Source: an uncultured Elusimicrobia bacterium
Lineage (GTDB): Bacteria > Elusimicrobiota > Elusimicrobia > Elusimicrobiales > UBA9959
Assembly (NCBI GenBank): GCA_903879915.1
Contig: CAIRNJ010000091.1
Location: forward strand, 95,718 to 159,717
Length of the DNA stretch: 64,000 nt
Direction of reading: 5' to 3'
The translations under genes were made by a program, and so were the position numbers. Positions 20,346 to 52,968 of this stretch are shown here, piece after piece. Numbering within the stretch: the first letter of the stretch is position 1; every line of letters begins with the position of its first letter. A model generated the notes under the pieces. It worked only from the letters and a program-made list of their open reading frames with translations, did no database searches and was not told the origin of the DNA.

Positions 20346-22532
20346 TTAGTCCGTCAGCGTCGCGGGGTCCGCGAAGCGCGCCTGCATCTGGTTCACTTCG
20401 GCTATGTTGGCGTCGAAGCTGTTCTCCCGGTTGTTGAAGAACTGGTAGTTCTGCGTCACGTCGGTCTCGCCCTTAACCTTTTTATCGGTATGGACGTAGA
20501 CTTCCGCGGACACGTTCAGGGGGTCCACCAGCTGCACCAGCACCTTCAGGATCTCCTCGTAGGCCAGGTCGCTCCTGGTGCTGCCCGCCACCACTTTGGC
20601 CAGCTGCTCGGACTGCGCTTTCCAGCCGCCGGCGTGGCGCACCGTGAAGATATCGTGTATCACGTCGCTGGCGTCGTGCGCCAGCCCTCTCACCGTGGCC
20701 ATCGGGTCGTAGCCTTCCGTCACGGCCATCCCGCTCATGCGTTTCTCGGCGGTCTTCCAGTCGTAGTCCACCTGGCCTTTGTTGTTTATCGTGAACAGAT
20801 CGCCTACCCTGTCTACGATCTCGGGGACCACTTCGCGCATCACGTTCATGAACGCTTTCAGGATCTCCTGCGGGGGCGCCAGGATGATCTGCTGCACGCC
20901 GCCCTCGCTGATCAGCAGCTTTAAGTTCATCACGCCGGTCTTATAGAGCTTCATGCTGTGCGTCTCGGGGAAGATGGTGTCGGTGGGCAGCACGTTGGTG
21001 TTGTCCGTGCCGTTGCCTTTCATCCCCACGTAGCGCAGCACGCCGTTGGCGTTCTCCAGCATTTCGCGGGCCTGGCCGTCGCCGTGCTCCACAAAGCCCT
21101 CGTTGTGCTGGTACATCAGGGCGGGCAGGGTGGCTTTCCCGTCGGCGGTTTCTTTGTTCACCACGTAGATGGTCTTCTGCGTGTTGTGCTTCCTTTTGGT
21201 GCCGAGAATGGGCACGTTCAGGGTTTTGCCGTCCGAGGTCTTGGTGCGCTGCTGCACGTGCAGCGTGGTGCCGTTATTGTCCAGGGCCTGGTAGCGGTTG
21301 TAGGAGGTGGTCCAGCTGACGTCCTGCGAATGCGCTATGGGTATCTGCGCGTGCAGGTTGTGGCTGTGGCCGTGGTAGATGTCGCTGGCGGCGAAGTCGG
21401 GCTTCGCGCCTACTTCCTGGCTGGCGTGCGCGGCCGTGTCGGTCAGGTTGCCCAGGCCGCTGGCCGTTTCGTCGTTCTCGGCGAAGTCGTTGAAGTGCAG
21501 GCCCAGCTCCACGAAGCGCTTAAGGATGCTGAAGTCGCCCTGCAGGAATTTCTCCAGCGTCTCCATCTGTACGGGGTCCTTGGGGTTCAGGATGAACTCC
21601 ACCAGCAGCTTCTTGCCGAAGGTGCGGGAATAGCCTAAAGAAAGCTGGGCGGCTATCCACTTGTTCACCTGGCTGGCCCAGGTTTTGTTGATGAAGTTGG
21701 CCAGGATGTTATCCGCGGTCCACAGGCCGAGGTCGGACATGGGGATCTGCACGCTGGAGACGCCGGCGCTCACGCTCTTTACGGTAACGCGGTCCAGGCG
21801 GACGCGCAGCCGCAGGCGGTTCTCGTCCATGCGGTAAAGGGTTACCGAGGGCCTGCGCTCCTTGGTCTCGCCGGCCGAAATGGAAACGTTCACCATCTCG
21901 TTAAAGGTGGCGCCCATGCTGGCGCCGAAGCTGAGGCGCATGGAAAGGGGCAGCTTCCAGATCTCGCCTACTTCCATGGCGGACAGGCGCCTGGAGGTGG
22001 CGGGGATGACCGTTTTCATCTCATAAAGCTTCACCAGCGTGCCCAGCTCCTTACAGTACTTGTCGCTTTCCAGCGGGCGCACCACCTGCGATCTGCCCTC
22101 CAGCTGGCCGCCTATGCTTACGCCCAGCCCCTGCACGTTCGGTACCTGCAGGATCTCGTTGCCGAGGCCGACGGAAAGCTTTACGTTCACTTCGTCCACC
22201 AGGGCCAGTTTTTCATCAGGGAACCTTTTCAGGTAGCGGGCGAAGCCGCCGCCTATGCCCAGTACGTCCACCAGTTTAAGGTTCTGGTTAAGCTTCAGTT
22301 GGGCGGCTTTGCAGACGCTGTCCACGGTGCCGTCCTTGAGCTTTTCCCAGAACTGGTCGAAGTCGCTGGAGACCGGCGCGCCGGTAGAGACGGTCGGGAT
22401 CCTCGCGTCCTTATACTCTTCCAGCACCGAAGGAGGAACAGAACCTCTTAATGAATCCAGCGCGCTGGTTCCCGCGTAGGATACGTTCGCTCCGAACAGC
22501 ACCGCAGCCGCAGCGTATAGCGATCTTTTCAT
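20346..22532 (-). CDS. Secreted protein of unknown function, family A paralog 1 (728 aa)
   Basis: Signal module MKRSLYAAAAVLFGANVSYAGTSALDSLRG. It aligns along its length with 22730..24958 (e.g. RPSVTLYRMDENRLRLRVRLDRVTV is identical) and more distantly with 35952..38258. I recognised no domain. Confidence 0.8.
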   Translation of the reverse strand: MKRSLYAAAAVLFGANVSYAGTSALDSLRGSVPPSVLEEYKDARIPTVSTGAPVSSDFDQFWEKLKDGTVDSVCKAAQLKLNQNLKLVDVLGIGGGFARYLKRFPDEKLALVDEVNVKLSVGLGNEILQVPNVQGLGVSIGGQLEGRSQVVRPLESDKYCKELGTLVKLYEMKTVIPATSRRLSAMEVGEIWKLPLSMRLSFGASMGATFNEMVNVSISAGETKERRPSVTLYRMDENRLRLRVRLDRVTVKSVSAGVSSVQIPMSDLGLWTADNILANFINKTWASQVNKWIAAQLSLGYSRTFGKKLLVEFILNPKDPVQMETLEKFLQGDFSILKRFVELGLHFNDFAENDETASGLGNLTDTAAHASQEVGAKPDFAASDIYHGHSHNLHAQIPIAHSQDVSWTTSYNRYQALDNNGTTLHVQQRTKTSDGKTLNVPILGTKRKHNTQKTIYVVNKETADGKATLPALMYQHNEGFVEHGDGQAREMLENANGVLRYVGMKGNGTDNTNVLPTDTIFPETHSMKLYKTGVMNLKLLISEGGVQQIILAPPQEILKAFMNVMREVVPEIVDRVGDLFTINNKGQVDYDWKTAEKRMSGMAVTEGYDPMATVRGLAHDASDVIHDIFTVRHAGGWKAQSEQLAKVVAGSTRSDLAYEEILKVLVQLVDPLNVSAEVYVHTDKKVKGETDVTQNYQFFNNRENSFDANIAEVNQMQARFADPATLTD

Positions 22533-22715
22533 AGTTTTCTTTCTCTCCTTGATTTCCGTACTGTGTGCGTTACTCGTTCCGTCTTTGAAATCTCTTGTTA
22601 TAGTTTACCGCGTTCTGCGCCGGGCCGCCTGAGGCGGGGGAACCAGCGCGGCCCGCTTATTCGACCCAGGAGCGCCGGCTTATGGAAAACGCCTTTCGTT
22701 AAGCCGCCGGCTTAA
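22533..22715 (-). promoter_or_regulatory. Type-1 upstream cassette, copy C (A1 + PLD)
   Basis: P0 at 22699..22715, core at 22665..22682 (one mismatch), CCTGAGG at 22628..22634 and AGTTTACC at 22602..22609. Linkers are 16/30/18 nt. Confidence 0.75.
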
Positions 22716-22729
22716 CCCGCCCGCCGGTC

Positions 22730-24958
22730 CTAATCCGTCAGCACGGCCGGGTCAGCGAAGCGCGCGTGCATCTGGTTGACCTCCGCTATGCCGGCGTCGA
22801 AGCTGTTGTCCCGGCCGTTGAAGAACTGGTAGTTCCGCGTCACGTCCTCCTCTCCCTCCACCTGCTTGTCGGTATGCACGTAGACCTCGGCCGAGACGTT
22901 CAGCGGGTCTACCACCTGCACCACCACCTGAAGGAAATCCTCGTAGCTGAGGCCGCTGTCCGAGCTGCCGGCGGCTATTTCGGCGAGCTTCTCCGCCTGC
23001 GCCTTCCAGCCGGCGGCGCCGCGCGCCCCGGCCAGGCCGCGCAGGAATTCTTCCGCGCCGAGGGCGAGCTTTTTTACCACGTCCACCGGCTTTACGGGGT
23101 TCGCATAGTCGGCCGAAGTGCCGCCCACGCGCCGGGCGGCCTCCCGGGAGTCGTAGCGCACCCTGCCTTCCTCGCCGATATAGAACAGGCCCATCACCTT
23201 ATCCACTATGCCGGGCACGAACCGGCGCATCATGTTCAGGTACGCTTTCATCACGGCCTGCGCCGGGGCCAGCAGGATCTCCTGCAGGCCGCGCTCGTTT
23301 ATAAGCAGCTTGAAATTCATCACGGCGGTGTCATAATGTTTGAAGAAGCCGCCCGTATCGGGGAATATTTCGGCCGAGGGCAGCGTGTTCCCTTCGTTAG
23401 CCGCGCCGCCGTTCACGCCTACATAGCGCAGTACGCCGTTGGCCGTTTCCAGCATGTCGCGGGCCGTGCCGTCGCCCTGCCTCAGGAAGCCTTCGTTCTG
23501 CTGGTACATAAGCGCCGGCATGCTGGTTTTCCCGTCCAGCCCTTCCTTATTCACTACGTAGACGGTCTTCTGCGAATTGTATTTTACCTGCGAGCCCAGG
23601 AACGGCAGGTTCACCGACCGGCCGTCGGAATTGCGGGTGCGCTGCTGCACGTGCAGCGTTTCGCCCTGCCGGTCGGTGGACTGGTAGCGGTTATAGGAGG
23701 CGCTCCAACTGACGTCCTGGGCGTGCACGAAAGGCAGCCGCATATGCAGGTTATTCGAATGGCCGTGATAAATGTCGCTGCCCGCGAAGGACGGCTTCTC
23801 TCCTACGCCCCGGGCGGCCTGGCCGGCCGCGTCCGTTATCTCGCCCAGGCCGCCGGCCGTTTCGTCGTTTTCGGCGAAGTGGTTGAAATGCAGCCCCAGC
23901 TCTATGAAGCGCTTAAGGATGCTGAAGTCGCTCCGCATAAATTTCTCCAGCGCGGCCATCTGCCGCGCATCTTTGGGGTCCAGGATGAACTCCACCAGCA
24001 GCTTCTTGCCGAAATTCCTCGAATACCCGAAGGAGAGCTGCGCGGCCAGGAACTTGTTCACCTCGCCGGCCCAGGTCCTGTTGACGAAGCCGGCCAGCAC
24101 GTTGTCCGCGTTCCACAGGCCCAGGTCGGACAGGGGGAACTGCACGCCGGAGACGGAGGCGCCGGCGCTCTGCACCGTAACGCGGTCCAGGCGCACGCGC
24201 AGGCGGAGGCGGTTCTCGTCCATGCGGTAAAGCGTTACGGAGGGCCTGCGCTCCTTGCTTTCGCCGGCCGAGACGGAGACGCTTACCAGCTCGTTGAACG
24301 TGGTGCCCAGAGTGGCGCCGAAGCTGAAGCGCAGGCTCAGCGGCAGCTTCCAGATCTCGCCTATCTCCATAGCGGAGATGCGCCCGGCCGTGGCCGGGAT
24401 GGCGGTCTTCAGGTCATAAAGCTTTACGAGCGTGCCGAGTTCCCTGCAGTATTTGTCGCTGTCCAGCGGTCTGACCACCTGCGACCTGCCCTCCAGCCGG
24501 CCGCTGAGGCTGACGCCCAGGCCCTGTACGGCGGGGAGCTGCAGGATATCGTTGCCCAGCGTCGCCGAAAGATTTACATCCACCTCGTCCACCAGGGCCA
24601 GCTTCTGGCTGGGGGCCCTGAGCAGGTAGCGGCCCACCCCGCCGCCCACGCCCGGCACGCTGCCCAGCCTGACGTTCTCATTAAGCTTGAGCTGGGCCGC
24701 TTTGCAGACGTCGTCGATGGTGCCGTCCTTGAGCTTTTCCCAGAAATTGGCGAAGTCGCTGGTGACCGGGGCGCCCGGGGTAACCGTGGGCACGCCGAGG
24801 TTGGAGGACTCAACGCTGGCGCCGTCTACGCCGGCCGAGACCGAGCCGCTGAAAGTGGCGGGGCCGGCCGCCTTTAATGAAGCCAGCGCGCCGGTTCCCG
24901 CGCAGGCCAGGTTCGCCCCGAAGAACAACGCCGCCGCCGCGTAGAGAGTTCTTTTCAT
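22730..24958 (-). CDS. Secreted protein of unknown function, family A paralog 2 (742 aa)
   Basis: Signal module MKRTLYAAAALFFGANLACAGTGALASLKA. It is a close paralog of 20346..22532 and shares the C-terminus ARFADPAVLTD. Confidence 0.8.
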   Translation of the reverse strand: MKRTLYAAAALFFGANLACAGTGALASLKAAGPATFSGSVSAGVDGASVESSNLGVPTVTPGAPVTSDFANFWEKLKDGTIDDVCKAAQLKLNENVRLGSVPGVGGGVGRYLLRAPSQKLALVDEVDVNLSATLGNDILQLPAVQGLGVSLSGRLEGRSQVVRPLDSDKYCRELGTLVKLYDLKTAIPATAGRISAMEIGEIWKLPLSLRFSFGATLGTTFNELVSVSVSAGESKERRPSVTLYRMDENRLRLRVRLDRVTVQSAGASVSGVQFPLSDLGLWNADNVLAGFVNRTWAGEVNKFLAAQLSFGYSRNFGKKLLVEFILDPKDARQMAALEKFMRSDFSILKRFIELGLHFNHFAENDETAGGLGEITDAAGQAARGVGEKPSFAGSDIYHGHSNNLHMRLPFVHAQDVSWSASYNRYQSTDRQGETLHVQQRTRNSDGRSVNLPFLGSQVKYNSQKTVYVVNKEGLDGKTSMPALMYQQNEGFLRQGDGTARDMLETANGVLRYVGVNGGAANEGNTLPSAEIFPDTGGFFKHYDTAVMNFKLLINERGLQEILLAPAQAVMKAYLNMMRRFVPGIVDKVMGLFYIGEEGRVRYDSREAARRVGGTSADYANPVKPVDVVKKLALGAEEFLRGLAGARGAAGWKAQAEKLAEIAAGSSDSGLSYEDFLQVVVQVVDPLNVSAEVYVHTDKQVEGEEDVTRNYQFFNGRDNSFDAGIAEVNQMHARFADPAVLTD

Positions 24959-25140
24959 TTTTTTCGCCTTGCTTATCTGTTCCGTCCCGGGCGTGTGTTC
25001 CTAATCCGCTTTCTGCTTATAAGTAAAGTTTACTTCGCCCGCGGCCGGCTTCCCTGAGGCCGAAGGACCAGCGCTCGCCGCTTCTTCGACCCAGGAGCGG
25101 CGGCTTATAAAAAATGCTTTTAATTAAGCAGACGGCTTAA
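24959..25140 (-). promoter_or_regulatory. Type-1 upstream cassette, copy D (A2)
   Basis: P0 at 25124..25140, core at 25090..25107, CCTGAGG at 25053..25059 and AGTTTACT at 25027..25034. Linkers are 16/30/18 nt. Confidence 0.75.
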
Positions 25141-25237
25141 CAGGCGCGGGTGTTGCCGGGCGCCTGTCCGGGAGGGGGGATCATCCTATCGCCGGCCTGG
25201 GCGTGGTCAGCGGGGTATGGAGGTTTGTTCAGCGGCA

Positions 25238-27111: not shown

Positions 27112-27993
27112 TTATTTCACCAGCCGGAAGCCTACGTAGAAGCTGCCCTGCTTCATGTAAATATAGCTGCGGAAGTCGGTGCGCAGGTATTCGTTGTCGC
27201 TGCTGTAGAAGGAATTACCGCGGATGACATTGTCGCCGTTGGCGGCGCCTTTAACCGCGCTGCCGTCGGCGGGAGCGCCGGCGTACGATTCCTTATATAT
27301 GTCCTGCGTTATCTGCCAGACGTTGCCGGCCATGTCGCACAGGCCCTGCTTGGTGTTGCCCGCGGGCTTGGAACAGACGGGCCCGGTGCCGTTGTTGCCG
27401 CCGCCTACGCCGTTCTCTACGCCGTCGTATACCGCCCTGGCGTGGGTAACGGGCTCGTTGCCCCAGGGATATTTATTGCTCTTGCCTTCGCTCCGGGCGG
27501 CGTATTCCCATTCGGCCTCGGTGGGGAGCCTCGCGCCGGCGAACTTCGCGTAGTCGTTCATTTGCTTCCCGTTCAGGCAGTTCATCGGGTATTTCTGGTC
27601 GTTGGGAGTATGCCAGTTGCAGTTGAAGCTGTAGTAAGTGACCGGGGGCGTCGTGCACTTCCCTGCGTTAACGCACTGCGCGTATTGCTCCACGGTTACC
27701 ACTGTTTTGGCCATTTTAAAGGTATTAATACTTACCTCGTGTACCGGCCTTGTGTTATTAGACCCCGGGGCGCTTTTCTCTGCCCCCATCTGGTACTTGC
27801 CCCCGTGAATGGTCACCCATTTTATCTGCGCCGCGCCGGCGGCGTAAGCCGCCACATCCGGGTTAAATATATCTCCGTCCGCGTAGGTGGACGCCTCGAT
27901 GTTCCAGGCTTTCACCGCCAGGTCCCCGAATTCAGCGGCAACTGCGTTGCCGGCCAAACCTAACATCGCTATCAGCATCATCGCTTTTTTCAT
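27112..27993 (-). CDS. Secreted FGE-sulfatase (SUMF1/EgtB-like) domain protein, paralog 1
   Basis: CDMAGNVWQITQD, NVIRGNSF and a C-terminal GFRLVK follow the FGE-sulfatase domain pattern. The signal peptide is MKKAMMLIAMLGLAGNAVAAE. Confidence 0.75.
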   Translation of the reverse strand: MKKAMMLIAMLGLAGNAVAAEFGDLAVKAWNIEASTYADGDIFNPDVAAYAAGAAQIKWVTIHGGKYQMGAEKSAPGSNNTRPVHEVSINTFKMAKTVVTVEQYAQCVNAGKCTTPPVTYYSFNCNWHTPNDQKYPMNCLNGKQMNDYAKFAGARLPTEAEWEYAARSEGKSNKYPWGNEPVTHARAVYDGVENGVGGGNNGTGPVCSKPAGNTKQGLCDMAGNVWQITQDIYKESYAGAPADGSAVKGAANGDNVIRGNSFYSSDNEYLRTDFRSYIYMKQGSFYVGFRLVK

Positions 27994-28173
27994 TTGTGGT
28001 TTCTCCTTGGCTATTCTGACCTCTGGGTTTTATTGCCGCCTTCAAAACCTCACACTATAAGTTTACCGAGTTTTCCGTCGTGTTTCCTGAGGCAGAAGAA
28101 CCAAGGCCGCGCGCTTATTTGACCCAGGAGAGCCGGCTTACAAATACTGCTTTTAATTAAGCCGCCGGCTTAA
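27994..28173 (-). promoter_or_regulatory. Type-1 upstream cassette, copy E (FGE-domain gene 1)
   Basis: P0 at 28157..28173, core at 28123..28140 (two mismatches), CCTGAGG at 28086..28092 and AGTTTACC at 28060..28067. Linkers are 16/30/18 nt and the leader is 66 nt. Confidence 0.75.
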
Positions 28174-28177
28174 CCGA

Positions 28178-28231
28178 AATAGAGTGACACACAACTTAAT
28201 TGCTGTCAATTAAGTTGTGTGTCACCCTATT
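28178..28231 (-). terminator. Long palindromic hairpin, family copy 1
   Basis: Perfect 19-bp arms GTGACACACAACTTAATTG (28184..28202) and CAATTAAGTTGTGTGTCAC (28207..28225) with loop CTGT. It lies downstream of the 28289 gene stop and has a T-rich flank on the minus strand. Confidence 0.6.
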
Positions 28232-28288
28232 TGCAGGCAGGCTTTAATATACGGCCGGGGGAACCGTATTTTGATCCCTGTCGTTCCC

Positions 28289-29131
28289 TCAGGCAGTATG
28301 CTGCACGCCATCCAGGCCGGTCCAGCTTAAACCGCCGTTCGCGTTCAGCGTGAAGTCTTTTGCGTAGCGGCTGATCAGCAGGCCGTTGAGGAAGAGGTCG
28401 TGATAGCTGTCGAGCGCGGCCGCATCTCCAGTCCTGGCGGCCACGCTGAACTTGAGCACGTTCGAACCTACCCGGCTGGTGGCGCCGCCGGTGTTCCTGT
28501 AGAGGGTGTTGAACGTGTCCAGCCAGGCGGTTGTTCCGGTGAACGCCGACACTTGATATTCCTTCACACCGGAACCGATCCGGTCCGTTTTTAGGCCCTC
28601 ATTCCTGTAGAGGTAGCCGTAAGTGTCCTTCCAGACCACCTGCCCGGTGAAGGCGTTTACATCCCGGCTCTCTGCGCAAGAGCCTATCCGCGAAGAGTTC
28701 CTGTAAAGGTATTTGTAATGGTCCGTCCAGACCACGTCCCCGGTGAAGGCAGCTATGCCGTATTCCTTTACCTCGCGGCCCAGCCTGTCCGCGTTCCTGT
28801 AAAGGTTGCCGGCCCTGTCGGTCCAGGCGGCGTCGTTGGTGCAGCCGGTCTTGAAGGCCACCGCTCCGCGGCCGAGCAGGGTATGCCCGTTATAGATGTC
28901 GCCTTTGTTGTCTATGAATACCGGCGGCTTATAGCAGGCGGACTGTGGCGGAGCCGGCTGCGGTACGTCCTGCTGGTGCGGCGTCTGGAAGGAATGCCCG
29001 ATATCGGCGGCGCCGCACTTTAAGAGCCCCGCGAAGCTCGCCGAGGGGCCATCAAACGCCGCCCCCGGAGCCGCGGCGTAAGCGCCCGTAGCTGCCGCGA
29101 GCGCGGCAATGATAATCAATATTTTTTTCAT
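28289..29131 (-). CDS. Secreted repeat protein (about five ~38-aa repeats, LYRN...G..V..F.V..FTG...W.D)
   Basis: Signal peptide MKKILIIIAALAAATGAYAA. The repeated units NLYRNADRLGREVKEYGIAAFTGDVVWTD, YLYRNSSRIGSCAESRDVNAFTGQVVWKD and others suggest a beta-propeller-like architecture. Confidence 0.6.
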   Translation of the reverse strand: MKKILIIIAALAAATGAYAAAPGAAFDGPSASFAGLLKCGAADIGHSFQTPHQQDVPQPAPPQSACYKPPVFIDNKGDIYNGHTLLGRGAVAFKTGCTNDAAWTDRAGNLYRNADRLGREVKEYGIAAFTGDVVWTDHYKYLYRNSSRIGSCAESRDVNAFTGQVVWKDTYGYLYRNEGLKTDRIGSGVKEYQVSAFTGTTAWLDTFNTLYRNTGGATSRVGSNVLKFSVAARTGDAAALDSYHDLFLNGLLISRYAKDFTLNANGGLSWTGLDGVQHTA

Positions 29132-29313
29132 TTTGTACCCCTTATCCGGAAAGCATACGGCGAACTTTGCCGCTTGATCAAAGTTTACAGTATCTCCGGA
29201 GTGTTCCGATTGAGGCGAAGGGTAAGCGCGGCGAGGTTATTCGGACTATAACGGGTGAGACGCCACGGAGGGCGTTTTAGGAACAATTATTGTTGCCAAG
29301 GCGCGGGCGCCCG

Positions 29314-30150: not shown

Positions 30151-30233
30151 TTGCTCTCCTTGACCATAGGCTAGTTATTATAGCGGTAGGGCGCGGTTTT
30201 AGCAACTTTCAGGCGGGAAATAAGGTGGGGAAA

Positions 30234-30283
30234 TAAAGTGACACAGAACTTAATTGTTGCCAATTAAGTTCTGTGTCACTTTA
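30234..30283 (-). terminator. Long palindromic hairpin, family copy 2
   Basis: Arms GTGACACAGAACTTAATTG (30238..30256) and CAATTAAGTTCTGTGTCAC (30261..30279) with loop TTGC. It matches copy 1 except for one position, which is changed in both arms. It lies right after the S8 stop and ~85 nt upstream of the R1 start. Confidence 0.6.
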
Positions 30284-30284
30284 A

Positions 30285-44681: not shown

Positions 44682-45272
44682 TCAGTATTTGGACATTCTA
44701 TCCCAGAGCTTCTGGTTCACCGCTACGTAGCGGACCGAGGTGTAATCGGTCATATTCATCGCCATCATCCCGGCGAATTCATAGTCCATCTGTACGCGGG
44801 CGTAATAGCCGTTGCCGTCGTTCTTAAGTTCCGTATATTTCAACCCGGACAGTTTGATCACGTTCTGAACCGCGGCCAGGTCGGCGCTTTTCCAGAACTG
44901 GACCACGAACGGCCCCTGCCAGGCGTCCGCGGCCGGTATAACGTAAAGCTTGCGCACATCGAAGGGATCTGTCTGGTCCTTGGGCGTGGTTACCGCCGCC
45001 TCGAGGGACTTTTTTATTCCGCCGGGCCGGGGCGTCTTAACGGCGGCCGGCGCATGAGCGGGCGGAATGGCGGTATCCCGCGCCGCGGCCTGCGCGTTTA
45101 TGGCGGAGGCGTGCACCGCCAGGTCGGCGAACTGGGGGGAATTCTGGCCGTGGGGCATCTCTCCTCCCAGCGGCCCGTTCGGGAAACACGACACGGAGCC
45201 CGCGCACATCTCGGCTGCATATACGCCGCCGGTCAAGCCTAACATCGCAGCCACCATTAGTATTTTTTTCAT
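44682..45272 (-). CDS. Secreted hypothetical protein
   Basis: Signal peptide MKKILMVAAMLGLTGGVYAAE. It is the first gene behind cassette I and has a GAGGAGG Shine-Dalgarno. Confidence 0.6.
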   Translation of the reverse strand: MKKILMVAAMLGLTGGVYAAEMCAGSVSCFPNGPLGGEMPHGQNSPQFADLAVHASAINAQAAARDTAIPPAHAPAAVKTPRPGGIKKSLEAAVTTPKDQTDPFDVRKLYVIPAADAWQGPFVVQFWKSADLAAVQNVIKLSGLKYTELKNDGNGYYARVQMDYEFAGMMAMNMTDYTSVRYVAVNQKLWDRMSKY

Positions 45273-45423
45273 TTACTGTTTCCTCCTCTGTCTGAAACCT
45301 CTTACTACAAGTTTACCCCGTTTCTCCGCTGCTTTCCTGAGGCCTAAGAACCAGAACGGCCGATTTCTTTGACCCAGGAGCGGCGGCTTAGCTGAATAGT
45401 ATTTCGTTAAGCCGCGGGCTTAA
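45273..45423 (-). promoter_or_regulatory. Type-1 upstream cassette, copy I
   Basis: P0 at 45407..45423 (overlapping the stop codon 45420..45422 of the upstream gene), core at 45373..45390, CCTGAGG at 45336..45342 and AGTTTACC at 45310..45317. Linkers are 16/30/18 nt and the leader is 37 nt. Confidence 0.75.
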
Positions 45424-46070
45424 TACCCCGCGGGCGTAAATACCGCCGGGGCGTTCTTCCGCGCTTCGCCGTAAGACTCCTGCCTGCTCCGGCACGTCTG
45501 CAGCGCCGCGTCAAGGCTTGCCGGGGCGCCGAAGACGGGGCTTACGGCCCTGTCCAGGCACACCAGCGGGGCGAGAGGTTCTGAAGTGCCGCCGCAAAGC
45601 TGAAGGCCGTATTCGAGGGTAAGCGAGTAACCGCCGATGGTCTGGGATACGGTCCGATCAAGGCAGGTGACCGGGGCTTCCGCAACGGAGGTGCCGCCGC
45701 ACAGCTGAATGCCCTGCTTAAGGTTAAGTCTATACTGGTACGCTATTGAATGCCCCAGCGCTTTTTCAAGGCAGGCCAGCGGCGCTTCCGGTTTTGCGCT
45801 GCCCGCGCACAGGTTGAAGCTGTCGTCGCGGGTAAGGTCCCGGCCCCCGACGGGCCTGGTCTTCGCCGTATCTACGCAGTTCTGCATGGTGAACGTCTGT
45901 TCCGCCGGCGCCGCTGCATCGGCATAGGATTTGGCTTCGGCCGGCCGAACCAGCCCAGCGATAGCCGAAACCGGGGTATTAGCTTTCAATGAACCGCGCG
46001 CGCTTTCACCCGCGTAAGAGATATTTATCCCGAATATTACCGCCGCCGCCGTATATAGTGATCTTTTCAT
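45420..46070 (-). CDS. Secreted Cys-repeat protein, family C paralog 1
   Basis: Signal module MKRSLYTAAAVIFGINISYAGESARGSLK. Three units of the type LC.G....APL.CL..A are present. Confidence 0.6.
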   Translation of the reverse strand: MKRSLYTAAAVIFGINISYAGESARGSLKANTPVSAIAGLVRPAEAKSYADAAAPAEQTFTMQNCVDTAKTRPVGGRDLTRDDSFNLCAGSAKPEAPLACLEKALGHSIAYQYRLNLKQGIQLCGGTSVAEAPVTCLDRTVSQTIGGYSLTLEYGLQLCGGTSEPLAPLVCLDRAVSPVFGAPASLDAALQTCRSRQESYGEARKNAPAVFTPAGY

Positions 46071-46085: not shown

Positions 46086-46292
46086 TTACAGACAATATGC
46101 GATGGTCCCTGCGCCCATGTCGGAGCCGTTCTGATCGAACGGTCCCCAGAAGAACAGGTCCTCGCCGTCCGTCCCTTCCACTTCAGCTGCAGTGGGCGCG
46201 CTGGCGGGAACTATTAGTCCGGTGGGGGCCGCTTTCTGCGCCGGCTTTGAAACCATCCTGGAAGTTATATTTAACAGTCCGGAACTTTTCAT
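46086..46292 (-). CDS. Small hypothetical protein (68 aa), no signal peptide
   Basis: It directly follows a full cassette (J) and has an AAGGAGGG Shine-Dalgarno. The sequence is Ala/Pro/Gly-rich and ends in ...AYCL. Confidence 0.4.
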   Translation of the reverse strand: MKSSGLLNITSRMVSKPAQKAAPTGLIVPASAPTAAEVEGTDGEDLFFWGPFDQNGSDMGAGTIAYCL

Positions 46293-46447
46293 GCGCCCTC
46301 CTTGCCTGTCCGCCTTGGAAACCTCTCATTACTAGTTTACCCCGCGGGACGCCTGGCTTCCTGAGGACGAAGCCCCAATGCGGCGCGCTTATCCGGCCCA
46401 GGAGCGGCGGCTTATGAAAAGCGTATTCTGTTAAGCCGCCGGCTTAA
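46293..46447 (-). promoter_or_regulatory. Type-1 upstream cassette, copy J
   Basis: P0 at 46431..46447, core at 46397..46414, CCTGAGG at 46360..46366 and AGTTTACC at 46334..46341. Linkers are 16/30/18 nt. P0 starts 11 nt after the upstream CE4 stop. Confidence 0.75.
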
Positions 46448-46458
46448 CCGCCGCTTTA

Positions 46459-47565
46459 TTACTCTCCTTTAAAAGCCTGCGCCAGCCTTTCGGGGGAAAC
46501 TACTTTGTAGCCGTTCTCGGCCAGCCAACCTGCCAGCCGCTTGGCGGCCGTGCGGCTCTGCGGATGGATGTCGTGCATCAGCACTATGCCCTTGCCGCGC
46601 TTCGCTATCATGGAGATGGTGTTCTTGTAAAGCGTATCGGGGTCTTTCGTGGACCAGTCCAGCGTGTCTATGGTCCAGCCCACCGGCACCAGGTCCAGGT
46701 CGGAGGCTATGGCCCTGGCGGCCTCGGGCGAGACCACGCCGTAGGGCGGCCTGAAGAAAGAGGACTTTTTCCCGGTGACCGCGGTTATGGAGGAGCTTAC
46801 GCCGCCCAGCTGCCTGAGGGTTTCCTCCAGCGACAGCGCGGTGAAAGGCTTGCCTGACGGGGTGGCGTGGTTGTAGCCGTGCACGCCGATAAGGTGCCCG
46901 TCGGCCGCTTCGGCCTTCAGGCGGGTTTTGCCGTTCTCGCCGAGGTTGGCGCCCAGCACGAAGAACAGGCTCTGCGCGCCGGCCTCTTTCATGGAGGAGG
47001 AGACCTCCTCTGTCAGCGGCCCGGGGCCGTCGTCGAAGGTCAGGATCACTTCGCCGTTGTTCAGGAACCCGTCGAACTGCACCAGGTAAGGCGTATTGGC
47101 CTTTACGTAGTTTATCTGGCAGTAGCCGGCTTTTATGGGCACGCCGCGCGTTTCTTCGCCGCGTAAGCCGCCGAAGTTAAAAACGCCGTCCAGTTCCGCT
47201 TTCACCCTGTCAGAAATCCAGCCGTTGTCCCGGGGCGGTTCGGGCCGGTAGGGGGCGCCTGAGGCGGCGGTTATGCCGGCCGAAAGGTTTTCCAGCACGC
47301 CGCGCAGGTATTTGCCGGCGGCCGAGTGCTCGAGGAATTCGGGCGTGTCCTGCCGCTCCGAGAAAGCTCTCTCGGAATATGCCCGGAGGGCGGAATAATA
47401 TTCATCGTAGCCGGCTTTCAGCGAATTTATGTCCGCGGCGGGCGGCTGCGCGGCCGGTACTTCTACGGCGGCGGGGACCTGCGGCAGCTGAGGGGGCTGC
47501 GCGAAAGCCGGAACGAACGGCGCTATTGAAAACAATGAAACCAGCAGGCAGAGCTTTTTGTTCAT
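46459..47565 (-). CDS. Secreted polysaccharide deacetylase (NodB/CE4)
   Basis: ILTFDDGPG, GVHGYNH, FFRPPYG and VLMHD are the CE4 motifs. A signal peptide is present. Confidence 0.82.
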   Translation of the reverse strand: MNKKLCLLVSLFSIAPFVPAFAQPPQLPQVPAAVEVPAAQPPAADINSLKAGYDEYYSALRAYSERAFSERQDTPEFLEHSAAGKYLRGVLENLSAGITAASGAPYRPEPPRDNGWISDRVKAELDGVFNFGGLRGEETRGVPIKAGYCQINYVKANTPYLVQFDGFLNNGEVILTFDDGPGPLTEEVSSSMKEAGAQSLFFVLGANLGENGKTRLKAEAADGHLIGVHGYNHATPSGKPFTALSLEETLRQLGGVSSSITAVTGKKSSFFRPPYGVVSPEAARAIASDLDLVPVGWTIDTLDWSTKDPDTLYKNTISMIAKRGKGIVLMHDIHPQSRTAAKRLAGWLAENGYKVVSPERLAQAFKGE

Positions 47566-47583: not shown

Positions 47584-48132
47584 TTATACTCCAGTCAATA
47601 ATGCGTAACCGGTTCCCCCGGGCAGGCCGGCGGCTTTAAGTATCAGCCTCCCGCCGTTCTGCCTTATCTCCGCGCTGACGGCGGCGCCGGCGGCGGGCTT
47701 GAGCGCCATAACGGCCGTCCCGTCGCTGTAGCCGGTGCCTTGGTAGCCCTTCCCCGCCAGCGCGAGCTCGGCGGAAAAGTAAACCACCGGCCCGACAAAA
47801 TCATAATGGCCGGTTATCTTTATATGCCCGGCGCCCCGGTCGAGTCTGGCGTTAATATCCGCGGTCAGCAGTTCCAGGTCGTAGCCGTCCGGATAGTCCG
47901 GCGAGACCAGTTCGGACAGCGGCACAGCCTGCCCGCTTTCGAAAAGGCCGGCCAGCGCGGCGTAGGTCCGTTTGCCATTTTCGCCCGCGGTAAGCGTAAC
48001 CCGCGCCGGCGCGCCGGCTGCGGGCCCTGCGGCGGCCGCAGGCGCTTGCGCTGCAAGCGTCTTGAGCGCTTCTGCGGCGTACGCGCCGCCTGTTATCCCC
48101 GACACCAGAACCAGTATCATCAGCTTCTTCAT
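47584..48132 (-). CDS. Secreted hypothetical protein
   Basis: Signal peptide MKKLMILVLVSGITGGAYAAE. It is the middle gene of operon K. Confidence 0.55.
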   Translation of the reverse strand: MKKLMILVLVSGITGGAYAAEALKTLAAQAPAAAAGPAAGAPARVTLTAGENGKRTYAALAGLFESGQAVPLSELVSPDYPDGYDLELLTADINARLDRGAGHIKITGHYDFVGPVVYFSAELALAGKGYQGTGYSDGTAVMALKPAAGAAVSAEIRQNGGRLILKAAGLPGGTGYALLTGV

Positions 48133-49110: not shown

Positions 49111-49287
49111 CTGGTTCTCCTTATCTTCTGTACGGGCCGGGGCTTGTTCCAGGCCTCAAAACCTCACAATATAAGTTTACCGCGGTTTTTGCCGGATTAC
49201 CTGAGGCCGAAGAACTAACGCGCGCGGCTTATCCGGCCCAGGAGCGGCGGCTTATCAGCGCCGCCTTTCGTTAAGCCTTTGGCTTAA
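49111..49287 (-). promoter_or_regulatory. Type-1 upstream cassette, copy K
   Basis: P0 at 49271..49287 (TTAAGCC-TTT-GGCTTAA), core at 49237..49254, CCTGAGG at 49200..49206 and AGTTTACC at 49174..49181. I counted the linkers base by base as 16/30/18. Confidence 0.8.
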
Positions 49288-49410
49288 CGCTGTCGGGCGC
49301 CGGACAATAACCTGTAATTGTAGCGGGGTACAGCTCCGCCCGTGACAAATACTTAACACAACCATAGTGGTGCTATTGGGATTTGTTTTATTAATGGCAG
49401 ACAAGCAAAC

Positions 49411-50103: not shown

Positions 50104-50718
50104 ATGAAAATAACAGTGTTGACCATCATGCTCGCGGCAGCGGCGCTTTCAGCCGCTTACGCCGGCGAAAGCGCGGCAGGCCTGCTCAGGTCCGCCGTTC
50201 CGGGGCCGGCCCCGGAGGCCGTTCTTCCCGCTGCGCCAACTGCTGCGCCGGCCGGTACGCAGCTTGATGCTAAAACCCGGTACCAGGCCGACGCGCCCAT
50301 AGCGTGCTATCTCAAGGCCGTAACCTCATTATTCCCGGCCGCTTATCCCTTCGCGGCTGAAAGGGCCGTAAAGTTCTGCAGCGGCGCACAGTCCGCGGAC
50401 GCGCCTTTAGCCTGTTATAGCACGGCCCTGGCCTTAACCTACCCGGGCGGCGCTCATTTTACTGTGGACAGCGCCATCAACCTCTGCAGCGGTGCGCAAT
50501 CCGCTGAGGCGCCCATAGCCTGTTATGGCAAAGCCCTGGCCTTAACTTATCCAAGCGGCTATCCCTTCACGCCTGATAACGCTGTCAGGCTCTGCGCCGG
50601 CGCGCTATCCGCTGATGCGCCCATAGCCTGCTATAGCAAAGCTATGGCCTTAATTTATCCGAGCGGTGCTCCTTTCTCGGCGGACAGCGCCATCAAGCTG
50701 TGCGGGGATGCGCTGTAA
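50104..50718 (+). CDS. Secreted Cys-repeat protein, family C paralog 2 (four 36-aa repeats)
   Basis: I moved the start to MKITVLTIMLAAAALSAAYAGESAAGLLR (ATG 50104, AAGGAAGA upstream). The repeats are DAPIACY.KA.AL.YP.G..F..D.A..LC.GA.SA. Confidence 0.65.
   Translation: MKITVLTIMLAAAALSAAYAGESAAGLLRSAVPGPAPEAVLPAAPTAAPAGTQLDAKTRYQADAPIACYLKAVTSLFPAAYPFAAERAVKFCSGAQSADAPLACYSTALALTYPGGAHFTVDSAINLCSGAQSAEAPIACYGKALALTYPSGYPFTPDNAVRLCAGALSADAPIACYSKAMALIYPSGAPFSADSAIKLCGDAL
50290..50715 (+). repeat. Four tandem 108-nt coding repeats
   Basis: The 36-aa Cys-pair unit recurs four times to the end of the ORF. Confidence 0.65.
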
Positions 50719-50895: not shown

Positions 50896-51765
50896 TCAGT
50901 CCTTGGGGAGCAGCTGGAAGATGCCGGCGTCGACCATATAGATGGCTGACGCCTGCCTGTTCTCTCCGGAGTCGGCGTAGATGGCGGCCAGCTCCACGAA
51001 TTTATCCATGTGCTGGCGGTAGATATCCAGGTTGGCCCTCGACATACGGATGGTTATCCGTCTCGTATCCACCCGGCCGGCTTTCTTCATCCACTTCTCC
51101 AGGTGTCCCAGCAACGCGGCCTTCACCGGGGCGGTAGCCGGCGTCGCGGGCAGCAGCTCCACTACTTTCGCCGCGTATTCGGAGCGCGTTTTATCATTGG
51201 TAAACTCAGCTATGCCCTGGGCCGCGAACGTTCTGAGGGTTTTCCTTATCAGGTCGGGTTTGAAGCCCGTGGCGTTGGATAATTCGCGCACCGTTACCCA
51301 GCCCGTGGTGTTGAACAGATAATACTGGCAGAGGAACGACACCATGTCGCGGGCGCATACTTTCCATTGTTCCAGCGTAAGATTGGCGGTGCGCTGCGCG
51401 AGCGCTTTTTGTGTCGCGGCTTCCGCCAGCTCCCTGCTGGGGAGGTCCTCGTCCGCGGCGCCGGCTGCCGCCGGGGCGGACAGGGAATCGAGCAGTTCGT
51501 CCGAGCCCGACAGCGCTTTGAAATAGGCCCGGATCAGCTCCTGGCCCCGGGGGGAATCCTGTTCCACGCCCAGCGCGGCTATTATCGCTTTCAGGCGCCA
51601 GCTCCTGGGCAATTTCTTCCCGTGCTCCGTGTTCCAGTAGGTCATCAGGCTGAAGCCCAGGCTTTTTTTCCCGCCTACGCTGTTATAGAACTGGTGCGCG
51701 CTGGAGAAGCCCAGCTCTTTCCTTATCCTGGCCAGTACGCTGCCGAAAGCTTTTGAATTATTCAT
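50896..51765 (-). CDS. Putative HTH/winged-helix transcription regulator, paralog R4
   Basis: MNNSKAFGSVLARIRKELGFSSAHQFYNSVGG... and WVTVRELSNATGFKPDLIRKTLRTFAAQGI are present. Its start codon is 21 nt from palindrome P0 of divergent cassette L. Confidence 0.6.
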   Translation of the reverse strand: MNNSKAFGSVLARIRKELGFSSAHQFYNSVGGKKSLGFSLMTYWNTEHGKKLPRSWRLKAIIAALGVEQDSPRGQELIRAYFKALSGSDELLDSLSAPAAAGAADEDLPSRELAEAATQKALAQRTANLTLEQWKVCARDMVSFLCQYYLFNTTGWVTVRELSNATGFKPDLIRKTLRTFAAQGIAEFTNDKTRSEYAAKVVELLPATPATAPVKAALLGHLEKWMKKAGRVDTRRITIRMSRANLDIYRQHMDKFVELAAIYADSGENRQASAIYMVDAGIFQLLPKD

Positions 51766-51785
51766 TCGGCAATTATAACAAATAG

Positions 51786-51969
51786 TTAAACCACGGGTTT
51801 AGGAAAATGCGTTATCCCTAAGCCGCCGCTCCTGGGCCGTAATACGGGGCGGCGCTGGTTCCGCGGCCTCATGTGGCCGGTCCGCCAACGGAGTAAACTA
51901 TAGTAAGAAGTTTTGAAAGCCGCGCGGCCGGACAGCCGGAGCGGAACATAAATAAGGAGAGCAACTAAC
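51786..51969 (+). promoter_or_regulatory. Type-1 upstream cassette, copy L (the only plus-strand copy)
   Basis: P0 at 51786..51802 (TTAAACC-ACG-GGTTTAG), core TAAGCCGCCGCTCCTGGG at 51819..51836, CCTCATG at 51867..51873 and AGTAAACT at 51892..51899. Linkers are 16/30/18 nt and the leader is 70 nt. Confidence 0.75.
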
Positions 51970-52968
51970 ATGAAAAGAACAGTATGCGCTGCGGTGGCGG
52001 TGTTGTTGGGGGGAAATGTTTGTTACGCGGGAGAAGCTGCTCTTAACTCTTTAAGAGCCGCCGTTACGCCTTCGGCTCTGGCCGAGGCGGCTTCGCCGGA
52101 AAGCCCCAGGGGCTATGTGGTAGAGAACGATGCCCTGGCCGGTGCGCCATCCACTCCGGTGGAATGGGTTTCGGTGGGCGGCGGCCGGTTCATAATGGGC
52201 ACCGACAGCGCGGACGAGCAGTTCGCGGCGTCCAAACCGGCCCACGCTGTCAATGTAAGGTCTTTCGAGCTGTCCAGAACGCCCGTTACGGTGGAGCAAT
52301 ACGCGGAATGCGTGGTGAAAGGCAAATGCACGGAGCCGGGCACCGAGAAAGTGCCGGGTTCTAAACCGCCGCATTACGGCTACTGGATCGATCCTTCCGG
52401 GCCCGTGAATTTCACCGGCTACTGCAACTGGAAGGTGCCGGGCAAAGAACTTCACCCGGTCAACTGCGTAAGCTTCAAGCAGGCCGCGGATTACGCTAAG
52501 TTCAAGGGCGCGCGGCTGCCCACCGAGGCCGAATGGGAATACGCGGCCACCGGCGGCGGCAATAACCTGAAATATCCCTGGGGCAACAATAATCCCACGC
52601 CGGAAACGGTGGTGATGGATTTCTGCGGCGGCTACGCCGGCTGCCCCGGCCTCTACGGCCCCAAGCCGGTCTGCTCCAAGCCCGCGGGCAACGCGAAGGT
52701 GTCGGGCGGCGAGCTGTGCGACATGGCCGGCAACGTGTGGCAGTGGTTGCAGGACGGCTACAGGGATTCTTATAAAGGCGCGCCGGTCAACGGCTCCGCC
52801 GTCAGGGGCAGCGCGACCGGCGAACGGGTGGTGCGCGGCGGCTCTTTCGGAGACTACGGCGGGCCCGGCGACGGCCCCACCGATTCCTTCGCCTCGCGCT
52901 CGGATTACCGCGGCCACCGCAGCCCCGCCGGCCAGTACGACTTCCTCGGGTTCAGGCTGGCCAGGTAA
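51970..52968 (+). CDS. Secreted FGE-sulfatase (SUMF1/EgtB-like) domain protein, paralog 2
   Basis: Signal module MKRTVCAAVAVLLGGNVCYAGEAALNSLR. CDMAGNVWQWLQD, RVVRGGSF and GFRLAR are present. Confidence 0.78.
   Translation: MKRTVCAAVAVLLGGNVCYAGEAALNSLRAAVTPSALAEAASPESPRGYVVENDALAGAPSTPVEWVSVGGGRFIMGTDSADEQFAASKPAHAVNVRSFELSRTPVTVEQYAECVVKGKCTEPGTEKVPGSKPPHYGYWIDPSGPVNFTGYCNWKVPGKELHPVNCVSFKQAADYAKFKGARLPTEAEWEYAATGGGNNLKYPWGNNNPTPETVVMDFCGGYAGCPGLYGPKPVCSKPAGNAKVSGGELCDMAGNVWQWLQDGYRDSYKGAPVNGSAVRGSATGERVVRGGSFGDYGGPGDGPTDSFASRSDYRGHRSPAGQYDFLGFRLAR

Follow-up and report, generated by a model that had tools for sequence, protein, structure and literature searches.

A shared N-terminal leader on unrelated proteins of freshwater Elusimicrobiota: a probable interchangeable export module with a conserved post-cleavage segment

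Introduction

How do proteins whose mature parts have nothing in common come to open with nearly the same N-terminal sequence, and what might the part of that sequence lying beyond the signal peptide do? This question is raised by a stretch of 64,000 nucleotides (contig CAIRNJ010000091.1, positions 95,718 to 159,717; hereafter the window) from a metagenome-assembled genome (MAG) of an uncultured freshwater (lake) Elusimicrobiota bacterium, in which five genes open with one conserved leader of about 45 residues: 20346-22532(-), 22730-24958(-), 43695-44627(-), 45420-46070(-) and 51970-52968(+). Elusimicrobiota is a phylum with very few cultured members, and the literature that we searched holds nothing on the sorting of secreted proteins in it. 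An earlier note on this DNA had described the five open reading frames (ORFs) as sharing a signal-peptide module of about 30 codons. Translation of the ORFs bears out the five genes and their N-termini; the shared start is real, but the conservation extends beyond 30 codons, to residue ~40-45. Our findings favor, with moderate confidence, the view that this sequence is a lineage-specific, interchangeable export leader in which a Sec/signal peptidase I (SPase I) signal peptide is followed by a selected address or pro-segment beyond the cleavage site.

We refer to the shared leader of the five window genes as type 1 and to the protein behind a leader as its cargo. FGE stands for the FGE-sulfatase domain, and the two window genes that carry it, 51970 and 27112, are W_FGE and W_FGE2; window genes are otherwise named by their first coordinate. 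P-numbers denote proteins and L-numbers denote loci obtained in searches outside the window.

Results

Anatomy of the type-1 leader

As a guard against circularity, a hidden Markov model (HMM) was built solely from module sequences outside the window and used to score every stop-to-stop segment of the window. The type-1 leaders and their scores against this foreign-only HMM are as follows.

22398-22532, minus strand: type-1 leader, codons 1-45 of the family A gene 20346-22532, MKRSLYAAAAVLFGANVSYA followed by GTSALDSLRGSVPPSVLEEYKDARI; 73.9 bits
24824-24958, minus strand: type-1 leader of the family A paralogue 22730-24958; 33.9 bits, the post-cleavage part being the most diverged
44493-44627, minus strand: type-1 leader of the 20-residue-repeat protein 43695-44627; 67.9 bits; second gene after the upstream cassette at 45268-45443
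45936-46070, minus strand: type-1 leader of the Cys-repeat protein 45420-46070; 57.4 bits; after the 68-residue ORF 46086-46292 and the cassette at 46292-46467
51970-52104, plus strand: type-1 leader of the FGE/SUMF1-domain protein 51970-52968; 60.9 bits
7879-7977, plus strand: distant type-1-like leader of ORF 7879-8637, MKKMILAAAAVIAVSGLGYAGESAFNELSGG; 22.2 bits, E 3e-6

The three regions of a Sec/SPase I signal peptide can be recognized in residues 1-20. All five window genes, and almost every relative, have an n-region of the form MK[RKS], the h-region spans about 14 residues, with residues 5-17 (LYAAAAVLFGANV and variants) free of charge, and the c-region presents, family-wide, S/A/C at -3 (position 18), Y/F/C at -2 and Ala, rarely Ser, at -1 (position 20). 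The putative signal peptidase I cut probably falls within S/A/C-Y/F/C-A↓G, that is, at A20↓G21. Behind it lies the motif G-[ET]-x-A-[LF]-[DEN]-S-L-[KR]-x-S-V-x-P-S-V-L-[SE]-[GE], conserved to residue ~40-45, so that the proposal of conserved residues past the predicted cleavage site stands and amounts to about 25 residues after S/A/C-x-A↓G. A variable Pro/Ala/Ser-rich linker then joins the module to its cargo; the 'KGY' at the junction of the FGE proteins is part of that cargo family and not of the leader.

Other known kinds of leader do not describe this sequence. The lipobox L-[AS]-[GA]-C is absent from type-1 leaders, a Cys at position 18 or 19 occurring in two of the five window genes without being conserved; the twin arginine of a twin-arginine translocation signal is missing from the n-region (MKR or MKK); and the hydrophobic stretch lies before the conserved Gly, with polar amphipathic sequence after it, which is not the arrangement of a type IV prepilin leader. 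Among about 20 module proteins, no Pfam-A (E up to 0.01-0.1) or NCBIfam (E up to 1) family matches the N-terminus. A Lys/Arg at the end of the module, considered as a propeptide-processing site, is present in most members but absent from 22730 and 43695, and such a role is at best a weak possibility.

Specificity of the module

The simplest explanation would be that the similarity reflects generic signal-peptide composition, or chance in a GC-rich genome. The h-region is indeed rich in Ala, and Gram-negative signal peptides commonly have an acidic residue after A-x-A. Two degenerate codon patterns were written from the five N-termini, the second without a start-codon anchor; both match exactly the five sites in the window and give no match in 100 dinucleotide-preserving shuffles. 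With the foreign-only HMM no reversed-sequence decoy exceeds 5.2 bits, and the roughly 30 other signal-peptide-like ORFs of the window, 7879 excepted, score below 10 bits against 34-74 bits for the five genes; all but 7879, 50104 and 53043 fall below about 7 bits. A half-profile of the signal peptide (19-44 bits) sets all five genes apart from every other segment of the window, and a half-profile of the post-cleavage part does so for four of the five (12-33 bits), the paralogue 22730 (A2) giving 5 bits, which is noise. The full and half-profile scores separate the genes, and the similarity is therefore specific. Since the pattern is also confined to Elusimicrobia among 185,579 species genomes and conservation runs some 25 residues beyond the signal peptide, we see next to no chance that composition explains it.

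The similarity is visible in the DNA, as had been proposed: the first 32 codons are 62-69% identical between non-paralogous pairs, and a repeat search placed four of the five module regions in one direct-repeat family (D11), the fifth lying on the opposite strand. Of the looser versions suggested earlier, 7879 holds up, 50104 (E 0.002-0.03) and 53043 (E 0.004-0.15) are marginal, and 40220 and 35952 are undetected and indistinguishable from background. A word-indexed protein search with a 46-residue leader alignment returned nothing, the query being too short and of low complexity.

Cargo and distribution

All-against-all BLASTP comparison past residue 50 found the family A, 20-residue-repeat, Cys-repeat and FGE cargos mutually unrelated. 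The mature parts are thus unrelated, as claimed at the outset, apart from the tandem paralogues 20346 and 22730 (66% identity), of whose family 35952 is a third member (~31%). Within families, 45420 is related to 50104, and 51970 to 27112, both of the latter being FGE proteins (PF03781). Positions 43855-44318 hold six or seven 60-nucleotide coding repeats (…SDKGSWKYPxGxYALVG…), 50287-50713 three 108-nucleotide Cys-containing coding repeats (APIACY…LC[SG]GA), and 32963-33538, within 32551-33666, a Gly/His/Pro-rich low-complexity array (GPGDHGGG…), each in a gene for a signal-peptide-bearing protein.

The search of other genomes that had been suggested was run, and it found the type-1 module in Elusimicrobia, on cargos from at least 12 families that bear no relation to one another. 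When 1.84 billion representative proteins were searched with a profile built on the five N-termini, only 18 matched at E≤1e-3, about 13 of them genuinely; all of these genuine matches begin with the type-1 module, and their cargos are FGE, chagasin-I42-like and short-repeat proteins and several uncharacterized ones. The strict DNA pattern found three loci in the species genomes, all in uncultured Elusimicrobia MAGs (AlinenLipids, MJ-time, LacPavin), one of them with the module on a new HExxH-containing protein of 257 residues. In metagenomes a looser DNA pattern yielded seven genuine loci of eight (L010 is a false positive), some relatives having a GC content of only 49-55%. Searches with family A and with FGE added eight and 14 carriers, respectively, for a total of about 40 distinct proteins with the type-1 module, from Elusimicrobia in every case where the source names an organism. 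The flanks of the 21 fetched loci contain no further module genes, and the window genes recur in assemblies with 'BUCK21' names in European Nucleotide Archive records.

Alternative leader types and their exchange

The FGE cargo family shows that type 1 does not stand alone. We compared the leaders of the 119 best FGE homologues, assigning the classes other than type 1 by regular expressions. These 119 proteins, whose named sources are Elusimicrobia except for one Myxococcota MAG (P0133), share the catalytic domain and the junction (…[KR]GYVAGNDPSAGxPxKPVEWV…) behind at least four leader types: type 1 in 15 (W_FGE included), type 2 in 23, type 3 in 42 and type 4 in 16. In these homologues the type 2 leader reads MKK..M.VVMMGM.GGAYAA[ED]F[SG][DE]LAVKAADLKA (motif AEFGDLAVKAADLKA). 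Type 3 reads M.NWKKY.LAAVIVTAAGFGYIKSSHRNIP[AS]DLRDAVAD, with the consensus HRNIPADLRDAVAD in the 42 FGE homologues; it has no A-x-A site and is probably an uncleaved anchor. Type 4 reads …SWGQIGFGPGQSMDP.DAL, with the motif GFGPGQSMD. The leaders of this freshwater Elusimicrobiota clade thus fall into at least three or four discrete types, interchangeable within the lineage, and type 1 is only one of them, a point that the earlier note overlooked.

The window itself holds five type 1 leaders (plus 7879), three type-2-like leaders (27112, 44682, 47584) of the form MKK..M..AMLGL.GG.YAAEFGDLAV, and two type-3-like leaders (54587, 61756), in which a hydrophobic anchor is followed by P[AS]DLRDAVAD.

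27904-27993, minus strand: type-2 leader on the FGE paralogue 27112-27993, MKKAMMLIAMLGLAGNAVAAEFGDLAVKA
45183-45272, minus strand: type-2-like leader of ORF 44682-45272, MKKILMVAAMLGLTGGVYAAE; assigned by eye
48043-48132, minus strand: type-2-like leader of ORF 47584-48132, MKKLMILVLVSGITGGAYAAEALKTL; assigned by eye
54587-54721, plus strand: type-3-like leader of ORF 54587-55672, motif PPAGLRDAVADNG
62923-63057, minus strand: type-3-like leader of ORF 61756-63057 (Lnb_N domain), …HNAPPADLRDALASG

Within this one genome the FGE family carries types 1 (51970) and 2 (27112), and other Elusimicrobia have types 2 and 3 on their homologues of FGE and family A. A common 'D-L-[KR]' motif behind types 1-3 was considered and rejected, on hhalign probabilities of at most 5%; a regular-expression enrichment test of it is untrustworthy, its patterns having been designed post hoc.

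Leader and cargo similarity are uncoupled, as the following percentages of identity show.

51970 (type 1) and P0127 (type 3): leader 26%, cargo 79%
27112 (type 2) and P0224 (type 1): leader 20%, cargo 85%
P0134 (type 1) and P0160 (type 3): leader 16%, cargo 81%
P0139 (type 1) and P0219 (type 2): leader 31%, cargo 81%
51970 and P0224 (both type 1): leader 58%, cargo 42%

For 12 of the 15 type-1 FGEs, the nearest cargo neighbor has a leader of another type. The locus of P0224, on another contig from the same metagenome, is syntenic with the 27112 locus of the window (a gene for a 278-residue regulator, the FGE gene and a Hydrolase_4 gene), and this case looks like the in-place replacement of a leader between close relatives. 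Family A behaves in the same manner: between L009 and L011, residues 21-65 are 92-100% identical and the cargo 74%, whereas between L007 and L009 the cargo is 85% identical and residues 21-40 only 50%. Some family A proteins instead carry a leader of type 2 (P0057) or of type 3 (P0069). Near-identical FGE cargos with different leaders, together with this discordance in family A, bear out the earlier suggestion that the module is portable.

These comparisons also speak to plain paralogy, in which one ancestral gene would have given rise to all carriers and the mature parts would have diverged past recognition without recombination. The tandem pair 20346/22730 and the related pairs 45420/50104 and 20346/35952 are relationships of just this kind. 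Across families, however, the cargos include well-defined, unrelated folds, such as FGE-sulfatase (PF03781), chagasin-I42-like and family A, FGE domains that are 79-85% identical carry wholly different leaders, and the type of leader is independent of cargo similarity, which makes common descent of the whole genes very unlikely.

Selection and codon use in the module

Is the conservation beyond the cleavage site selected, or is it carried along? Nei-Gojobori estimates between modules on different cargo, made on about 20 codons per region from sequences that are not independent, gave mean proportions of synonymous (pS) and non-synonymous (pN) differences of 0.61 and 0.16 for codons 2-20, and of 0.57 and 0.27 for codons 21-39. 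As pS is near saturation while pN is low, both halves are under purifying selection at the protein level; on this comparison of sequences, signal peptide and post-cleavage part alike are old and constrained whatever the cargo. Family A orthologues share 80-95% identity in the signal peptide and 69-80% in the mature part, which is unusual because signal peptides usually evolve faster than mature proteins.

It could be argued that only the signal peptide matters and that the following ~25 residues are a neutral passenger of recent duplications of the 5' end. Consistent with this, breakpoints vary, with the P0033/L014 copies of a low-GC lineage carrying an extra, FGE-derived 'KGYAAGN'; little of the second half of the motif survives in 22730, which is at noise level with the post-cleavage profile; and the structural model described below places the segment outside the fold. 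Near-saturated pS beside low pN in codons 21-39 argues against recency and neutrality, as does the retention of the motif across species about 10% apart in GC and across the cargo families, and every other leader type also has its own conserved motif after the signal. On balance we consider a neutral passenger unlikely.

Codon use adds a second layer. Codons that this genome seldom uses are conserved at particular positions, irrespective of species and cargo, with GGA21, TCA27, TTA28 and CCT34 each in 12 of 15 sequences and GTT32 in 11 of 15 (examples in the window are at 22446-22454, 44541-44549 and 52048-52056). In the codon set that served for comparison, TTA provides 1% of the codons for Leu, TCA 4% of those for Ser and GGA 6% of those for Gly. 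Synonymous sites elsewhere in the module are scrambled: Gly14 is spread over all four codons, and Leu25 and Leu37 are CTG in GC-rich genomes. The GC content of third positions (GC3) in codons 11-30 is 0.54 in module genes versus 0.73 in other genes. Part of this is general: in genes overall, TTA accounts for 8.4% of Leu codons within the first 40 codons versus 2.6% elsewhere, so that much of the rare-codon effect is the ordinary AT-rich 5' ramp. The position-specific pattern nevertheless exceeds that ramp and may reflect translational pacing or dependence on rare tRNAs.

Taken further, the nucleotide sequence itself could be primary, as a 5' coding element acting in translation (through a ramp of rare codons or, as with bldA, through the need for a rare tRNA-Leu(UAA)) or as a binding site for protein or RNA. 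The conserved rare codons and the lower GC3 speak for such an element. Against it stand the many synonymous differences under conserved amino acids, which point to selection on the peptide, the general early enrichment of TTA, and the lack of conserved mRNA structure in the module (RNAalifold, -3.9 kcal/mol, five weak pairs). The 9-mer TCATTRARR, tried as a dispersed site, was dropped: it has seven matches versus about two expected, four of the seven inside modules, and is not otherwise enriched. We regard a primary nucleotide element as quite unlikely.

Family A and a possible origin of type 1

Family A supplies two tandem cargo genes of the window.

20346-24958, minus strand: two tandem family A cargo genes

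The family comprises 86 clusters of proteins of about 750 residues with no Pfam match, and its named sources are only Elusimicrobia. An AlphaFold2 model from a 72-sequence alignment has a mean predicted local distance difference test score (pLDDT) of 78 and a predicted template modeling score (pTM) of 0.79. Residues 1-43 are below a pLDDT of 50, with short low-confidence helices at 23-30 and 34-42 outside the folded body, and in the model the type-1 segment thus appears to behave as an appendage outside the cargo fold. The body combines many beta strands of 15-22 residues with helical domains, and its only structural matches are outer-membrane beta-barrels, which are weak (E≥1e-3, TM≤0.2).

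Most of the distant family A members carry 'ALDFDGG…S[FL]S[ED]SVxxLKxxS' between the signal peptide and the start of the fold ('[KR][AT]PxVST…FWExLK'), and the leader segment of P0068, 'AGALTELKSEVPPS', is intermediate. Because the segment of the distant members resembles it and P0068 lies between, the type-1 segment 'SALDSLKASVPPS' may have been derived from a native N-terminal extension of family A and then spread, a similarity that we judged by eye.

The surroundings of these genes are partly conserved. In the window (18687-24958, minus strand), in L018 (10001-13847) and in L019 (10001-13824), the gene immediately after family A encodes a phospholipase D (PLD)/cardiolipin-synthase-like protein, which has a signal-peptide-like N-terminus and scores 227 bits with TIGR04265, under its cut-off. 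Near this block lie a pair of genes for a trypsin-like and an S8 peptidase and an FGE gene.

The upstream DNA cassette

A non-coding cassette of about 125-175 nucleotides occurs in 12 copies in the window, always 40-100 nucleotides upstream of a gene start and in gene orientation. Its blocks are, in order, the palindrome TTAAGCC-N3-GGCTTAA, TAAGCCGCCGCTCCTGGG, CTGGTTC, GCCTCAGG and GGTAAACT. Eleven copies are in minus orientation (4039-4112, 7577-7701, 22599-22723, 25024-25148, 28057-28181, 33711-33835, 38325-38449, 41538-41662, 45307-45431, 46331-46455 and 49171-49295) and one in plus orientation (51784-51910). At full extent, those associated with module genes are as follows.

22560-22735, minus strand: cassette upstream of 20346-22532
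24985-25160, minus strand: cassette upstream of 22730-24958
51766-51941, plus strand: cassette upstream of 51970-52968
45268-45443, minus strand: cassette heading the unit 45272→43695, with the module on the second gene
46292-46467, minus strand: cassette heading the unit of the 68-residue ORF and 45420-46070

The 68-residue ORF 46086-46292(-), MKSSGLLNITSRMVSK…, between its cassette and 45420-46070, is a gene call in the public assembly and has no recorded match to any family. The genes downstream of cassettes mostly have signal-peptide-like N-termini, and the cassette also occurs in other Elusimicrobia MAGs (L007-L009, L011-L013, L015, L018, L019).

The five module genes had been called cassette-associated, which holds directly for those starting at 22532, 24958 and 51970; those starting at 44627 and 46070 are only second genes behind a cassette. 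The earlier note went further and took cassette and module together for one portable expression-and-export unit, which would make them a single mobile element copied before new genes. It fits such a unit that a cassette precedes a module gene by 70-100 nucleotides in the window as well as at L007, L008, L009, L011, L012 and L013. That claim found no support, however, as seven of the 12 window cassettes lead units without a core module gene (4075, 7505, 27993, 33666, 38258, 41479 and 49110, two of them heading the looser cases 35952 and 40220), and two module genes are second in their unit. The lower-GC relatives L014, L016 and L017 carry the type-1 module without a recognizable cassette, and types 1 and 2 have been exchanged inside a syntenic locus. 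The spacers from the TAAACT box of the cassette to ATG resemble one another no more closely within the set of module genes (0.58-0.82) than across module and non-module genes (0.52-0.72), which gives no support to a single homologous block of cassette, untranslated region and module, and that idea was rejected. All told, a single mobile unit is unlikely.

On the simplest reading, the cassette is a regulatory or promoter region that the genes of a secreted-protein regulon share. It has no Rfam match at the gathering threshold or at E≤1. As a structured RNA it was rejected, RNAalifold supporting only the TTAAGCC-N3-GGCTTAA hairpin, which a DNA palindrome explains equally well; a long CCTGGG…CCTCAGG stem seen by eye is unsupported by RNAalifold. 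It was also rejected as a sigma-70 promoter, with no consensus site within any cassette. At L021 (4900-5000), in a related MAG, a canonical TTGACA-N17-TATAAT precedes a type-3 FGE gene where the window gene has the cassette; since this gene has a canonical sigma-70 promoter, the lineage uses standard promoters and the cassette is something else.

Four paralogues of about 280-290 residues adjoin cassette-led genes: 29314-30150(-), 41850-42710(+), 42723-43604(+) and 50896-51765(-). They open with MNNSKAFG..L.KIRK..GF.SAHQFF, and three of the four have weak winged-helix matches (ArsR/MarR/LexA-like, residues ~140-190). Homologous 286-residue genes lie divergently beside family A in L018 (8934-9794) and L019 (8183-9043). 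These winged helix-turn-helix (wHTH) paralogues are candidate regulators that would bind the cassette palindrome. Separately, two near-identical palindromes at 28177-28232 and 30231-30286 (26+26 nucleotides, AAATAGAGTGACACACAACTTAATTG / CAATTAAGTTGTGTGTCAC…, 96% complementary, with a 4-nucleotide loop) flank the two-gene unit 28289-30150, which encodes a signal-peptide-bearing protein of 280 residues and a wHTH paralogue; these palindromes resemble operator sites.

A conserved 5' non-coding region and signal-peptide coding region before clustered, unrelated genes also recalls the vsp and vpma genes of Mycoplasma (PMC2268961), and thus phase or antigenic variation, in which one expression site is recombined onto silent cargo genes. 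Here each module gene is complete, with its own start codon and ribosome-binding site, and has no lipobox. No recombinase family was detected among the scanned ORFs of the 64-kb window (Pfam/NCBIfam), module boundaries have no pairs of inverted repeats, and the genes are stable across several metagenomes. Phase variation of this kind is hardly credible for these genes.

Among the remaining features of the window, a transfer-messenger RNA gene lies at 8756-9107(+) (Rfam RF00023, 135.7 bits), whose tag ANSNEMAWAHA ends in AHA rather than the usual LAA.

Discussion

Our findings point to an export leader made of two elements that can be exchanged between genes as a unit. In the mechanism that we propose, residues 1-20 would direct Sec export and signal peptidase I would cut after the small-x-small triplet at A20↓G21. 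Residues 21 to ~45 would form a second element, conserved independently of the cargo, which as an address, a retention tag or a pro-segment would determine what becomes of the protein once Sec has translocated it. Recombination at the junction of leader and cargo would move leaders between cargo genes, so that the same enzyme comes to carry different leaders in close relatives, and each leader type would combine its own signal peptide or membrane anchor with its own conserved motif after it. If the post-cleavage segment does set the fate of the protein, a swap of leaders would re-address the cargo; judged from these gene comparisons, this suggests that the bacteria re-address proteins by exchanging N-terminal tags.

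Several points weigh against this interpretation. We infer both the cleavage and the retention of the motif at the mature N-terminus from the anatomy of the leader, and we identified no cognate sorting machinery for the type-1 segment. The post-signal motifs of types 1, 2 and 3 have no significant profile-profile similarity to one another (hhalign probabilities ≤5%), so that a common recognition principle is unsupported. The estimates of selection rest on few codons and on sequences that are not independent, and the regular expressions for the other leaders were written after inspection of the data. Since rare codons are kept at several synonymous positions, part of the conservation of the module may also act at the level of nucleotides or translation.

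A bolder extension is that Elusimicrobiota use combinatorial N-terminal addressing, in which the motifs of types 1-4 would each be read by a dedicated sorting or anchoring machinery and enzymes would be re-targeted between envelope compartments by leader swaps. The leaders would then be, by analogy, N-terminal counterparts of the C-terminal signals of the type IX secretion system (T9SS-CTD) or of PEP-CTERM. We offer this as a tentative possibility. Known post-Sec sorting signals of diderm bacteria are mostly C-terminal, as in these two systems, or tied to lipoproteins.

What would be expected of an address label fits what we find for the exchangeable two-part export leader: a selected, cargo-independent segment of ~25 residues that accompanies at least 12 families of cargo, a set of three or more alternative leaders, and the replacement of leaders on near-identical enzymes. 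The analysis yields concrete, testable peptides, such as the tryptic G-E-S-A-L-D-S-L-K, and a set of motifs for phylogenetic profiling toward the machinery. HMMs of the leaders would improve the secretome annotation of these MAGs, in which most cargo, including family A, is now labeled 'hypothetical'. Should the segment be only a linker or propeptide, the leaders would still be a clean case of exon-shuffling-like evolution of bacterial signal sequences.

Comparison with known systems

The closest precedent in gene architecture comes from the Erp, Elp and Mlp proteins of Borrelia burgdorferi, for which Marconi et al. (1996) and Akins et al. (1999) reportedly described a conserved upstream box and a shared leader before unrelated mature proteins, a set that is said to have been read as the recombination of 5' ends in a multigene family. 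The Borrelia proteins are lipoproteins with a signal peptidase II lipobox, encoded on cp32 prophage plasmids, and their leader stops at the lipidated Cys. Here, too, a shared leader coding region precedes unrelated mature regions, but there is no lipobox, the genes are chromosomal, a segment of ~25 residues follows the cleavage site and several leader types exist. These two works (J Bacteriol 178:5615; Infect Immun 67:1526), on the Borrelia 'upstream homology box' and the OspE/OspF-like leader peptide, appear in the reference list of PMC10016077.

In Mycoplasma agalactiae vpma and M. bovis vsp, the 5' untranslated and signal-peptide coding regions are conserved while the remainder is without homology; the products are lipoproteins (AAKC motif) and repetitive antigens, and Xer1 switches them site-specifically at a single expression site (PMC2268961). 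The conserved N-terminal coding region before an unrelated remainder is common to both cases; differing from them, the present locus has no recombinase among the scanned ORFs and no silent copies that we saw, and its cargo consists of enzymes and folded domains. On a linkage of upstream box and leader, as in Borrelia and Mycoplasma, the picture here is mixed: in the GC-rich relatives the cassette precedes most module genes, but it also precedes genes without the module and is absent from L014, L016 and L017.

For the post-cleavage segment, the nearest parallels are of another kind. The lipoprotein export signal (LES) of Bacteroidetes consists of 3-5 residues after the lipidated Cys of surface lipoproteins, and the Gly/Asn-rich N22 of curli CsgA targets the CsgG channel; in both, a short motif at the mature end, kept after removal of the signal peptide, decides a step after Sec export. 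The type-1 segment is likewise conserved at the predicted mature N-terminus independently of cargo (at least 12 families; pN 0.27 versus pS 0.57), although it has no sequence similarity to either. By this analogy it would most plausibly work like these mature-end sorting signals. The YSIRK-G/S and KxYKxGKxW motifs, which mark surface proteins of Gram-positive bacteria, and the extended signal peptide region (ESPR), which marks autotransporters, are also shared by many exported proteins and tied to a secretion route. With these the type-1 leader has in common a recognizable motif in or near the signal peptide that recurs, within one lineage, on many exported proteins of different function; unlike it, they sit before the cleavage site in the n- or h-region and have Pfam/NCBIfam models, none of which matches here.

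In polymorphic toxins, finally, the N-terminal trafficking region is conserved and recombination exchanges the C-terminal domains (PMC3482391). Both systems thus join an unchanging export part at the N-terminus to a cargo varied by recombination, but theirs is a long scaffold that swaps toxin tips and is paired with immunity genes, whereas here the leader is exchanged, the cargos are entire proteins unrelated to one another, and we saw no immunity-gene pattern. Set beside these systems, our finding belongs with the shared, recombining leaders, and what is unusual about it is the conserved element of ~25 residues beyond the cleavage site together with several interchangeable leader types.

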